Source: a virus
Lineage: Duplodnaviria > Heunggongvirae > Uroviricota > Caudoviricetes
Virus record (IMG/VR): IMGVR_UViG_2737471821_000012
Span: 1-35,193 of that record
Direction: 5' to 3' (one strand)
DNA length: 35,193 bases
This document shows positions 17,091 to 18,663 of this stretch, one piece after another. The notes under the pieces are model-generated. The model was not told the origin of the DNA and ran no database searches. It saw nothing but the letters and a program-made list of their open reading frames with translations. The number at the start of each line of letters is the position of its first letter. Positions within the stretch are counted from its first letter, which is position 1. The translations under genes and the position numbers were made by a program.

Positions 17091-17267
17091 AGGTTGAGGA
17101 CTCTTTCGCGCCTTCAATCAGTAACTGCTTCTGCAATTCGAGTGTGCCAATCGCCTCGCATAAACTGATTTCACCATCGTAATCATGGATGACGCTTTCA
17201 AGCCGCTCGTATAGCTCTTGAGTAATTGGGAATTTCTTCTCCTTACCAAGATCAACGACGCTTGTCA
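17091..17267 (-). CDS. Small hypothetical protein (58 aa)
   Basis: Hand-translated minus-strand ORF MTSVVDLGKEKKFPITQELYERLESVIHDYDGEISLCEAIGTLELQKQLLIEGAKESST, between the 95-aa ORF and terS; below the ORF-track cutoff. Confidence 0.3.
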
Positions 17268-17277
17268 TAGAGTGTTC

Positions 17278-17565
17278 CTATAATTTTGAATATCCAGACT
17301 CAAATACCTCAGCAGGAGAATATGATTCATATCCATCCTCATAGACAACGTAATAGCCTCCAGACATTGGTCGGTGCTTACAGATATATTCCGCGCTAAC
17401 ATCAAATGCTGCGTATTTCTTATCATCCGGATGAATAATTGCCCCATAACTAGAAGAGCCAGTCTTACCAGACTGATCTGGGTTTGGCTTATGTTCTATA
17501 GAGCCAATCTTCAGGGCGCGAACTTTTTTGTGGCACTGGTATCTCGGCATTTCTTGTTCAGTCAT
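17278..17565 (-). CDS. Hypothetical protein
   Basis: 95-aa ORF in the lysis-to-terminase interval, co-oriented with late genes. Confidence 0.45.
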   Translation of the reverse strand: MTEQEMPRYQCHKKVRALKIGSIEHKPNPDQSGKTGSSSYGAIIHPDDKKYAAFDVSAEYICKHRPMSGGYYVVYEDGYESYSPAEVFESGYSKL

Positions 17566-17568
17566 CTC

Positions 17569-17811
17569 TTACACTCCGGTAGTGAACAGGTCTAACGCTT
17601 CCTTCGATTTACGCACCGCTTCGATAGTGCGGGTCGTGATATCTGAATTAGCGCCACCTGACTGGAAGTGAATTTTGAATAGCTCAAGCTTCAGCTCGTC
17701 AGTGCCAATGAATTGAAATGCTTCTTCTGCGGCTGCGTTCTGGTTCATGACCAGTTTGTAAATCTCTAACTGGAATTTCTGTTCTTCAGTCATGGGAATA
17801 ATCTCTGCCAT
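17569..17811 (-). CDS. Hypothetical protein
   Basis: 80-aa ORF, 3-nt gap to the next ORF, late-operon orientation. Confidence 0.45.
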   Translation of the reverse strand: MAEIIPMTEEQKFQLEIYKLVMNQNAAAEEAFQFIGTDELKLELFKIHFQSGGANSDITTRTIEAVRKSKEALDLFTTGV

Positions 17812-17914
17812 TGTTGGCTCCGTTTATCCGTTAAAAGGGATATCAGTTAAGTTATCCCGTGTAGGGTATAAGCCATTATCAAAGCCACTCTGTAGGGAAT
17901 GGCTTTTGTAATAA

Positions 17915-18286
17915 CTACTGTTCGCTTAGCTTCTGCTTCAGCAAGTAACCTTCAAGCATCCAGATTTTGTTTACAGCATTCTGCCGGGCAATCTTCCGAC
18001 CAATTTCTGCATCAAAATTTTCCGGACTTGCACAGGCACTCTCTCCGGTGACGGTGAAGCCGTTGCGCAGCACCAGGACGCAGAACGTCAGCAGAGAAAG
18101 TGATTCGTGCGGCTGGTAGTTTACCTCTCCGCCAGTATGTTTCGCTTTTATGGCTTTGCCAAAGGCACCATCCTCTGCTGTGAAATATGCCTCCTGAGCA
18201 ATAATTCCTTCGATATGGTCTGGCGTAACGCGCGGTGCCGTTTTGCCTTTCTCAACGATTTCTTTTTCGATTTGCTGGTCGTTCAT
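17915..18286 (-). CDS. Hypothetical protein (post-lysis cargo position)
   Basis: 123-aa ORF in the position where lambdoid prophages carry Bor/YbcV-type cargo between Rz and the terminase genes. Confidence 0.5.
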   Translation of the reverse strand: MNDQQIEKEIVEKGKTAPRVTPDHIEGIIAQEAYFTAEDGAFGKAIKAKHTGGEVNYQPHESLSLLTFCVLVLRNGFTVTGESACASPENFDAEIGRKIARQNAVNKIWMLEGYLLKQKLSEQ

Positions 18287-18663
18287 AATTATGACCCTGT
18301 AGAGTGGTTGCTTGATTAGGATGTCTTTCCATCAGTCCGCCACCACAAAGAATCTTTTTTGCCATAAGGCTGGAGGTTCATCTTTCAGTGGCTGCCAGTG
18401 TTATTTCCCCACTTTCTGGCTTGGGTTGTTTCGCTGTACTGCCGTAACTGGTTGCCCAGAATAAATCCCGGTTTCATTATCAAGCCCACCCGTAGATAGG
18501 CTTTGTAATGACTGGCTCTTATCTCAACGCAGCCCCTTACCGCGCGCCAGATGCTCAATATCAAGCATCAGCAATGAGATGTTTAATCTGGATTCACTCC
18601 AGAAGTGATCACCACCCTGTCTACAGAGCCAGATGTGAAGGATGATGAGTAAAATTATCGCTA

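Follow-up and report, generated by a model that had tools for sequence, protein, structure and literature searches.

What does a P22-like prophage carry between its lysis genes and its terminase? We addressed this question in a 35,193-nt stretch of viral DNA (the window), where a first-pass annotation had placed four co-oriented ORFs between Rz and the small terminase gene terS. These ORFs are found, all on the minus strand, although the last encodes 59 rather than 58 aa. All four match full-length phage protein families and are therefore not chance ORFs. On the minus strand the gene order is holin, endolysin, Rz/Rz1, a 50-aa ORF, a conserved structured leader, acb4, hkbM, ORF95, hkbN, terS, terL and portal, with tight spacing of 3, 9 and 17 nt at the ORF junctions. 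The features are as follows.

18664-19131, minus strand: Rz (PF03245)
18524-18676, minus strand: 50-aa ORF, homologue of Sf6 gp65 and Kapi1_042 (phrog_11822)
18475-18509, minus strand: stem-loop 1 (motif search and centroid fold)
18320-18445, minus strand: non-coding core, 126 nt (alignment across related phages)
17916-18319, minus strand: acb4 cassette, 404 bp (present/absent comparison with related phages)
17915-18286, minus strand: ORF123 (acb4), 123 aa (PF13876)
17874-17912, minus strand: stem-loop 2 (motif search and compensatory changes)
17569-17811, minus strand: ORF80 (hkbM), 80 aa (DUF2560/PF10834)
17248-17573, minus strand: ORF95 cassette, 326 bp (present/absent comparison with related phages)
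17278-17565, minus strand: ORF95, 95 aa, OB-like, without a Pfam family
17089-17268, minus strand: ORF59 (hkbN), 59 aa (phrog_3546)
16643-17071, minus strand: small terminase, Sf6-type (terS; PF20901)

Judged from its genes, the window appears to be an Sf6/HK620-like (P22-family) prophage in which the Rz-terS segment forms a mosaic accessory part of the late operon. The backbone and junctions are as in Sf6 genes 65-68, HK620 hkbK-hkbN and P22 rha-ORF80-ORF59C. The 50-aa ORF, ORF123, ORF80 and ORF59 are the equivalents of Sf6 gp65, gp66, gp67 and gp68, respectively, and the latter two correspond to hkbM/ORF80 and hkbN/ORF59C of HK620/P22. In comparison with Sf6, HK620, Kapi1 and P22, the ORF95 cassette is an extra element of the window, whereas slot A, which elsewhere holds Rha, KilA-N or a Tad2 fusion, is empty as it is in Sf6. 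Comparison of related phages shows that acb4 and ORF95 are separate cassettes, each of which some phages carry and others lack, with junctions that stay the same. The acb4 cassette is inserted at a fixed point, directly after ...GGAAAGACATC of the core; it is present in Sf6 and missing from Kapi1, HK620, P22 and HK022, such that in phages without it position 18320 abuts position 17915 (window numbering). Elsewhere, this insertion point is empty in 81 loci and is otherwise filled by acb4 alleles, a DUF551 gene or a 56-57-aa ORF. The ORF95 cassette recurs at 99.4% identity in phage Bas106 and at ~70% in phage Dewey, and the cargo of equivalent slots in other phages is a Tad2-domain protein, Rha, KilA-N, HNH, DUF551 or Dec.

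ORF123 matches PF13876 with 119.5 bits (cut-off 27; E 8.6e-35), its residues 20-120 covering profile positions 1-82 of 82, and on this profile evidence it is a full-length PF13876/Acb4-family protein. PF13876 is Phage_gp49_66, of which Sf6 gp66 is the namesake and N4 gp49 is also a member, and it is equated with the Acb4 family by Chang et al. (10.1101/2024.12.30.630793). Acb4 is a tetrameric sponge for CBASS cyclic dinucleotides, as shown in 2024-25, and all eight homologues assayed by these authors bound 3'3'-cGAMP; homologues from phages of Gram-negative hosts bound 3'3'-c-di-AMP as well but not c-di-GMP. The 1,331 homologues in its Table S3 include Sf6 gp66 and close relatives of ORF123. 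[quoted passage not shown]

How closely does ORF123 follow a structurally characterized Acb4? A match to the structure from Bacillus phage SPO1 (PDB 9e4w_A; E 0.006) places ORF123 residues 66-108 on chain residues 38-80, the beta2-beta3/alpha4 region that includes the beta3-alpha4 ligand loop, and the motif ENF(D/N)xEIGR is common to both proteins. The ligand contacts listed for SPO1 Acb4 are K36, F48, E49, V56, Y57, F62, N63, I66, T70 and K81, with K36 and K81 lying outside the aligned stretch. When the alignment is read against this published list (chain numbering +1), F48, F62 and I66 are kept in ORF123, whereas E49T, V56C, Y57A, T70I and N63D are changes, N63 being a backbone contact. The contacts are only partly conserved, and ligand specificity is therefore uncertain. 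The proteins also differ in length (96 aa in SPO1, 123 aa here), the N-terminal part of ORF123 being longer and hypervariable between alleles, and in gene location, which is among the early or middle genes in SPO1 and in the late operon in the window. We infer that ORF123 is a predicted tetramer that would sequester CBASS cyclic dinucleotides such as 3'3'-cGAMP; binding of c-di-AMP is also expected since the host is Gram-negative. The label of unknown function given to these ORFs in the first-pass annotation can thus be lifted for ORF123.

What does this say about the segment as a whole? We hypothesize, with more confidence than doubt, that it is a mosaic late-operon accessory region of a P22-family prophage and at least partly an anti-defence island used in lytic growth. 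The anti-defence character of the slot is supported by the slot A protein Kapi1_043, which joins an ORF95-like motif to a Tad2-like domain (E 3.9e-26), and by Citrobacter prophages, in which acb4 is also found at another place in the same late operon. The probable late expression, in contrast, would be an unusual timing for an anti-defence gene and counts against this assignment.

The interval between ORF123 and Rz (18287-18663, 377 bp) had been considered noncoding. This description fails for the 50-aa ORF and holds for the ~237 bp that lack a credible ORF, which contain conserved structured elements. The 50-aa ORF overlaps the Rz stop by 13 nt, has a hydrophobic N-terminus and matches phrog_11822 over positions 1-50 of 50 (E 3.9e-38), with no Pfam or NCBIfam family. 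It is annotated as Sf6 gp65, Kapi1_042 and Bas106_0068 and also in Huey, and is intact in each of the about 50 loci where tblastn detected it. The remaining ~237 bp are far from random and contain stem-loop 1 and the 126-nt core. Alignment with Kapi1, HK620, P22, ST64T and HK022 places the core within the leader found ahead of hkbM in phages of the P22-like and HK022-like types. It is near-invariant in 87 related phage loci, with a per-site diversity of about 0-0.02 against 0.078/0.044/0.152 at codon positions 1/2/3 of hkbM, although these loci were collected by a 22-nt exact word taken from the core itself, which may bias the comparison towards conservation. Among 5426 complete E. coli genomes, 1120 carry the core with an identity of at least 95%, in most cases without annotation. 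The core and the covarying stem-loops are an unannotated element of about a fifth of these genomes. Short ORFs within the core (21-37 aa; MAKKILCGGG..., MNLQPYGKK...) were rejected as genes since different cassettes truncate them differently in different phages. Rfam covariance models gave no relevant match over 16500-20600 at E up to 1, a tRNA scan of the core was negative, and folding of the whole gap yielded weak z-scores of -1.6 and -0.7.

The structured elements are two stem-loops of one architecture, a motif that occurs in just two copies in the window where 0 are expected by chance. Stem-loop 1, ATTA-CA-AAGCCUAUC(loop)GGGUGGGCUU-GA-UAAU, is found at the 5' edge of this conserved leader and immediately follows slot A, at the point where homology to Kapi1, HK620, ST64T and HK022 restarts. 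It appears in the centroid fold, its stem is preserved in about 30 sequence variants, and C-to-U changes leave G.U pairs on the minus strand only. Stem-loop 2 follows the acb4 stop and precedes the ribosome-binding site of hkbM. Its two alleles differ at 4 of 17 pairs by compensatory changes on both sides, and 98.5% of cells are paired versus 32-55% when the partners are slid. Our best guess is that the stem-loops act on the late mRNA and affect its processing or stability. An analogy to integron attC sites was dropped: the consensus of such sites is RYYYAAC/GTTRRRY, which the arms do not fit, and no integrase was seen in 14500-22000. A complementarity of 13 nt links the region upstream of acb4 with stem-loop 2; it is at chance level among 28 such pairs and was set aside too.

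One alternative hypothesis is that the non-coding part of the gap is a functionless scar, the 3' flank of a lost rha, KilA-N or Tad2 cassette that looks alike among phages through recent recombination. The core does begin at the rha stop codon in P22 and many E. coli prophages, slot A is vacant in both the window and Sf6, near-identical segments are common among lambdoid phages, and no Rfam family, promoter or terminator was detected. However, the core varies less than the second codon positions of the neighbouring gene (in loci gathered by a core word) and is kept regardless of the upstream gene, and both stem-loops show compensatory changes and an invariant internal loop, which argues against a mere remnant. 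We consider the scar doubtful, although it is the rival explanation that survives best.

Returning to the anti-defence island that we favor, a second question is what ORF95 contributes. ORF95 is a small beta-barrel with an OB-like fold, and its best structural match is Dec, a virion protein. In a comparison with Dec of phage L (PDB 6e3c), hhalign aligns ORF95 to Dec residues 11-91, which form the capsid-binding OB domain, with a probability of 82% (E 1e-5). Sequence identity is only 28%; the ORF95 profile finds Dec in the PDB as a weak match (E 1.1), and a sequence search of the PDB with ORF95 returned only noise. The N-terminal OB-fold capsid-binding domain of Dec has a counterpart in ORF95, whereas the C-terminal three-stranded beta-helix spike is absent: ORF95 stops at residue 95, corresponding to the end of the Dec OB domain, while Dec has 134 residues. 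Lacking this spike, ORF95 would not form a trimer of the Dec kind. In ST64T (orf-134) and in locus L119, Dec itself is encoded between hkbM and terS, in the slot that ORF95 fills here. By sequence and profile comparison, ORF95 is best described as a remote relative of the OB domain of Dec, minus the trimer spike. The earlier statement that none of these proteins resembles a structural protein must accordingly be qualified for ORF95, which sits in Dec's slot and is distantly homologous to its capsid-binding domain.

Beyond Dec, the ORF95 family is a ~95-aa OB-like domain of about 5,000 clusters at 50% identity that has no Pfam model. Its invariant aromatic or basic residues are Y9, H12, K13, K19, Y51, H64, Y71, Y72, Y75, Y79, F88 and Y92. 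A sponge domain was identified in 16 of the 85 multi-domain relatives scanned (Sequestin in 7, Acb4 in 4, Tad2 in 3 and Acb2/Tad1 in 2), while in 62 no partner domain of a known kind was seen. In the 16 fusions whose layout was determined, the OB domain comes first, at the N-terminus. In one replication module, a homologue precedes an Acb2/Tad1-hairpin gene by 10 nt, and others are found in replication or early modules. The wider family differs from Dec in that its context is mostly non-structural and it is fused to sponges. Sequestin was discovered by the same fusion logic (Tal et al. 10.1101/2025.07.12.664507), and the ORF95-like domain resembles the known sponge fusions in being a partner repeatedly joined to Acb4, Tad2, Sequestin and Acb2/Tad1. 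Because it has no Pfam family, screens for fusions that rely on Pfam, like the one by Tal et al., would have missed it. Sponge-sponge fusions (Acb4-Tad2, Acb4-Sequestin) and the N4-like hotspot (Fedorova et al. 2026; Tal et al. 2025) likewise show small anti-signalling genes, Acb4 among them, clustering in one variable locus as in the window, although the Fedorova hotspot lies beside replication genes of lytic N4-like phages and the window is the late operon of a temperate P22-like phage. A literature search for an OB-fold or decoration protein combined with a sponge returned nothing relevant. As a further candidate for an ORF95-like domain we considered the C-terminal domain of Q7ME37, an Acb4 fusion from Vibrio vulnificus, which hhalign rejected (probability 0.2%).

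These fusion and neighborhood patterns, which amount to guilt by association, suggest that ORF95 may be the second anti-signalling component of the segment, whether as a module for ligand binding or as an accessory to a sponge. Could it instead be a minimal Dec-like decoration or cementing protein, with its OB domain on the coat lattice and no spike, and hence a virion accessory rather than an anti-defence protein? The hhalign match to the capsid-binding domain, the presence of Dec in the same hkbM-terS slot of ST64T and L119, the position of the gene in the late operon adjoining the head genes, and the annotation of a Pseudomonas phage Dolphis homologue as 'capsid decoration protein' are all consistent with this. 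We nevertheless find it unlikely: the three-stranded spike is missing, the match to Dec in the profile search of the PDB is weak, homologues occur in replication or early modules and are joined to cytoplasmic sponge domains, and the cryo-EM capsid structure of Ralstonia phage GP4 shows only gp2 and the Ig-like cement protein gp1, with no density assigned to the homologue gp05. More tentatively than for the island itself, we propose that the ORF95 family might be an unnamed anti-defence module, either a new immune-signal sponge or an obligate partner that extends or targets sponges, and that Dec might be a derivative recruited to the capsid. If so, P22-like phages would have, between Rz and terS, an anti-signalling island in the late operon, with Acb4, an OB-Tad2 fusion, DUF551 and an OB protein as alternative cassettes, bracketed by conserved RNA stem-loops.

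The remaining two genes, hkbM and hkbN, are the most conserved of the segment, yet they lack any link to defence. ORF80 (hkbM, P22 ORF80, Sf6 gp67) matches PF10834 with 147.7 bits (cut-off 25; E 1.1e-43) over profile positions 1-72 of 72. Its AlphaFold2 model has four helices (pLDDT 87.9), for which no specific structural match was found, and a sequence search of the PDB gave noise only. The family comprises 92 clusters, and all organism names given by the sources are enterobacterial. ORF59 (hkbN, P22 ORF59C, Sf6 gp68) matches phrog_3546 (E 8.7e-40) and has no Pfam, NCBIfam or PDB match; the named members of its 71 clusters are all Enterobacterales. A search of the literature on DUF2560 and hkbM/hkbN yielded nothing relevant.

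Another hypothesis is that hkbM and hkbN, and perhaps ORF95, are accessories of DNA packaging or head assembly that work with the small terminase downstream. In P22, Sf6, HK620 and Kapi1 they immediately precede terS, be it of the Sf6 or the P22 type, their spacing suggests translational coupling, and natural in-frame ORF95-EESS-hkbN fusions of 158 aa exist. However, hkbN is absent from several phages with the same terS (L096, L018), hkbM is absent from Bas106, and neither resembles a packaging protein in structure or sequence. P22 genetics is also not known to have found an essential gene between gene 15 and gene 3, which counts against a packaging role, and we regard such a role as improbable.

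When would these genes be expressed? The promoter check suggested earlier for lysogen transcription from 18287-18663 gave no sigma-70 promoter-like or terminator-like site on the coding strand, in a crude consensus scan that may miss weak or non-sigma-70 promoters; over the whole region 2 promoter-like sites were found versus 2.9 expected. Expression with the late operon, as the first-pass annotation proposed, is the likeliest regime given the co-orientation, the tight spacing and the lack of a promoter or terminator pattern in the gap, and on the same grounds all genes of the segment would be transcribed from the Q-dependent late promoter. PADLOC defence-system models matched none of the ORFs and NCBIfam gave nothing for any of them, and for this reason the idea of a prophage-encoded defence system was dropped. 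The comparison with bor holds in part. The bor/moron region of lambda, from Rz to cos, lies at the equivalent place beside the lysis cassette and is variable in content, and the segment is indeed the slot in which the late operon of a lambdoid/P22-like phage carries variable accessory genes. In contrast to lambda bor, which is on the opposite strand and is transcribed in the lysogen from its own promoter, the window genes run with the late genes, and the analogy fails for lack of an own promoter, of an opposite orientation and of a defence-model match. That the four ORFs are morons expressed by the prophage to alter the host phenotype is highly improbable, for although lambda carries bor in this interval, the segment is highly mosaic and the core element is widespread among E. 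coli prophages, the genes are all co-oriented and tightly coupled with the late genes, the gap has no promoter- or terminator-like site, no protein has a signal peptide or lipobox save the 50-aa ORF with its hydrophobic N-terminus, defence-system models give no match, and the ORF123 family works for the phage during infection. Anti-defence genes acting in lytic growth, rather than bor-like conversion genes in the lysogen, are thus the best reading.

How might such an island act? Going by the findings of Chang et al. on the family, the ORF123 tetramer would take up CBASS cyclic dinucleotides, and this sequestration would leave CBASS effectors inactive while late proteins build up. The fusions and neighborhood of ORF95 suggest that it would add a second anti-signalling component, built on the OB-like fold that phage L uses, with a trimer spike added, for capsid decoration. 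ORF123 thereby gains a concrete and testable function as an Acb4-type cyclic-dinucleotide sponge, and temperate Sf6-, HK620-like and P22-like phages would enter the anti-CBASS picture via late-operon cargo, in a slot commonly written off as hypothetical genes. The ORF95 family, which has members joined to each of the four sponge families that have been named and is missed by Pfam-based screens, is a possible new class of immune antagonist and a possible origin of the unusual OB fold of Dec.

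The prophage in the window belongs to the P22 family (Lederbergvirus; Sf6/HK620/Kapi1 type), and its late operon lies on the minus strand.

19588-19911, minus: holin, first listed
19128-19604, minus: endolysin, after the holin
18664-19131, minus: Rz, with Rz1 embedded
18524-18676, minus: 50-aa ORF overlapping the Rz stop codon, phrog_11822 match
18475-18509, minus: stem-loop 1, first of two copies of a shared motif
18320-18445, minus: core, 126 nt, near-invariant
17916-18319, minus: acb4 cassette, 404 bp, ORF123 plus ribosome-binding site
17915-18286, minus: ORF123, 123 aa
17874-17912, minus: stem-loop 2, second copy of the motif
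17569-17811, minus: ORF80 (hkbM), 80 aa
17248-17573, minus: ORF95 cassette, 326 bp
17278-17565, minus: ORF95, 95 aa
17089-17268, minus: ORF59 (hkbN), 59 aa
16643-17071, minus: Sf6-type small terminase, beyond the accessory region
15231-16646, minus: large terminase
13031-15229, minus: P22-type portal

The first-pass annotation had placed four small ORFs and a noncoding 377-bp gap between Rz and the small terminase, an observation that is real yet incomplete. All four ORFs are present, with spacers of 3, 9 and 17 nt only, and each has a full-length match to a phage family; the last is 59 aa long, not 58. The gap, however, contains a 50-aa ORF with a hydrophobic N-terminus that is covered from first to last residue by a phrog_11822 match (E 4e-38), has annotated counterparts (Sf6 gp65, Kapi1_042 and Bas106_0068) and is unbroken in all related loci with a tblastn match. 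In the other ~237 bp no credible ORF, intrinsic-terminator pattern, tRNA or Rfam match was found, and the promoter search that had been proposed for the gap returned no sigma-70 pattern there. The suggestion that the region carries cargo comparable to bor was right in spirit, since the slot does hold identifiable cargo, but wrong in kind: this cargo would act for the phage in lytic growth and not for the lysogen.

Pairwise comparison with Kapi1, HK620, Sf6, P22, ST64T, HK022 and Bas106 revealed sharp breaks. A common backbone extends from the lysis genes to about 18502, followed by a slot (slot A) that is empty in the window prophage and Sf6 and is occupied by Rha in P22 and Bas106, KilA-N and hkbL in HK620, an HNH endonuclease and a regulator in Dewey, and a 173-aa protein in Kapi1 and Huey. 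Beyond slot A, similarity restarts at 18513 with a conserved leader that runs to 18320. In Kapi1, HK620, P22 and HK022, position 18320 abuts 17915 directly, and therefore 17916-18319 is a cassette inserted in the hkbM leader. Among 129 loci gathered with a 22-nt word of the core, this insertion point, directly after ...GGAAAGACATC, is empty in 81, holds an acb4 allele in about 23, and runs on in lambda-like sequence towards Nu1 in about 11; a DUF551 gene and a 56-57-aa ORF fill it in four loci each, one of the latter also carrying acb4. The ORF95 cassette is lacking in Sf6, HK620, Kapi1 and P22 and is found in Bas106 (99.4% identity) and Dewey (about 70%).

The assignment of ORF123, the counterpart of Sf6 gp66, to the Acb4 family is firm, because the protein covers the whole PF13876 profile (119.5 bits, cut-off 27), matches the solved structure of SPO1 Acb4 (9e4w, E 0.006), and has near relatives, together with Sf6 gp66 itself, in Table S3 of Chang et al. 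(10.1101/2024.12.30.630793). In that study, SPO1 Acb4 forms a tetramer and sponges up 3'3'-cGAMP along with related CBASS signals, and the family is given as the 1,331 members of PF13876; eight of eight purified homologues bound 3'3'-cGAMP, c-di-AMP was an additional ligand of those that come from phages of Gram-negative hosts, and none bound c-di-GMP. The ligand specificity of ORF123 is less firm, since the SPO1 contact residues are conserved only in part (F48, F62 and I66 retained; E49 to T, Y57 to A and T70 to I altered in the alignment to 9e4w). ORF123 adds a new allele to a known family. The acb4 alleles (window 17915-18286 and loci L003, L008, L022, L024, L096, L119 and L129) are near-identical at residues 1-21 and from about 66 on, and at least five unrelated sequences of differing length lie between residues ~22 and ~65, giving proteins of 118, 123, 126 and 131 aa. 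By these alignments acb4 is an otherwise conserved sponge gene with a hypervariable N-terminal segment. Carrying acb4 may be costly in some hosts, since the Panoptes guard system is reportedly triggered by the N4 homologue.

In two Citrobacter P22-like prophages (L135 2628-2984 and L136 2283-2666) the interval from the Q antiterminator gene to the holin contains an Acb4-family gene, an arrangement which indicates that acb4 moves among slots of one late operon; the ORF95 homologue is still in its usual place after hkbM. Sf6 and Kapi1 carry tRNA genes at this spot (tRNA-Asn and tRNA-Thr, as in Bas106), and the corresponding ~600-bp interval of the window (19912-20507) has none.

What, then, is ORF95? 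Pfam and NCBIfam searches returned no family match, and our literature search found no paper naming the family, for which an E cut-off of 1e-3 yields 5150 representative clusters and one of 1e-10 yields 3208. The AlphaFold2 model, from a 56-sequence alignment, is a confident small beta barrel (pLDDT 82.5). We rank highest the hypothesis that ORF95 is an anti-signalling module, on the basis of fusion, context and capsid-structure evidence. Among 85 multi-domain family members, 16 of the 23 Pfam matches are to sponge families (Sequestin 7, Acb4 4, Tad2 3, Acb2/Tad1 2), and the OB domain is N-terminal in the 16 fusions locatable by local search. The slot A protein Kapi1_043 (L001 2259-2780; also Huey_CDS0064 in L008) likewise has a Tad2-like domain (PF11195, E 3.9e-26) preceded by a module with the ORF95 C-terminal motif DGYxSxSPxxFExxY. 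Other lambdoid prophages carry stand-alone homologues between their lysis and terminase genes; such homologues are also found in replication modules, in one case 10 nt ahead of an Acb2/Tad1-hairpin gene. The discovery of Sequestin rested on the same kind of fusion evidence, from a search limited to Pfam families (Tal et al. 10.1101/2025.07.12.664507), and a domain with no Pfam model would therefore escape detection.

The alternative, that ORF95 is a decoration protein, ranks lower. Profile comparison supports homology over the entire OB domain of the phage L decoration protein Dec (probability 82%, E 1e-5; the match is not significant when PDB sequences are simply searched with a profile, E 1.1), and Dec (ST64T orf-134) occupies the same slot between hkbM and the small terminase gene. 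However, ORF95 ends where the Dec OB domain ends and therefore lacks the trimer spike. Moreover, Ralstonia phage GP4 encodes a homologue, gp05, within its head gene cluster, but gp2 and an Ig-like cement protein are the only proteins in its published capsid structure.

The 173-aa slot A protein is labelled 'hypothetical' in Kapi1 and 'anti-CRISPR' in Huey. In GP4 the gene that comes after gp05 is gp04 (L134 4303-4500), which encodes a CsrA-like regulator and is likewise part of the head gene cluster. DUF551 is present as a 71-aa gene at the acb4 insertion point, 3' of the core, in L114 and L043 and is fused to an ORF95-like domain in two of the 85 multi-domain relatives, which hints that it may share this functional neighbourhood.

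The backbone genes hkbM (DUF2560; 92 clusters) and hkbN (71 clusters) are each dispensable in some relatives, and all source-given organism names are enterobacterial. The hkbM model is a four-helix protein (pLDDT 87.9) for which no specific structural neighbour was found, and hkbN had no match in Pfam, NCBIfam or PDB searches. In the window ORF95 and hkbN share one frame, separated by TAG GAA CAC TCT (17268-17280), and in some genomes (proteins P0001-P0004 and P0006) a sense codon replaces the ORF95 stop to give an in-frame ORF95-EESS-hkbN of 158 aa.

Along with the ORF95 family, the conserved leader is worth following up. Across 87 loci, which were picked out by a 22-nt word that belongs to the core itself, per-site diversity of the core is about 0-0.02, compared with 0.078, 0.044 and 0.152 at codon positions 1, 2 and 3 of hkbM beside it; of 5426 complete E. 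coli genomes, 1120 carry the core at >=95% identity, mostly without annotation. The two stem-loops are built alike: in both, an invariant CA/GA internal loop joins the outer stem to an inner stem of 9-10 bp, and no third copy of the motif occurs in the window. Compensatory differences separate the two alleles of stem-loop 2 (both sides changed in 4 of 17 pairs; 98.5% of cells paired versus 32-55% with slid partners), although these are essentially two lineages and so few independent events, and in stem-loop 1 C-to-U changes preserve G.U pairs solely on the late-mRNA strand. Together these patterns suggest that the late transcript forms RNA structures, and our best guess is that they are putative processing or stability sites.

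Among DUF2560 gene calls, many that run to 102-129 aa (P0121-P0130) look N-terminally over-extended. In ST64T orf-118 (L005 1950-2306) the extension begins at an ATG within the conserved core (MAKKILCGGG...) and runs through stem-loop 2; the real start in such calls is most likely the methionine of MAEI...
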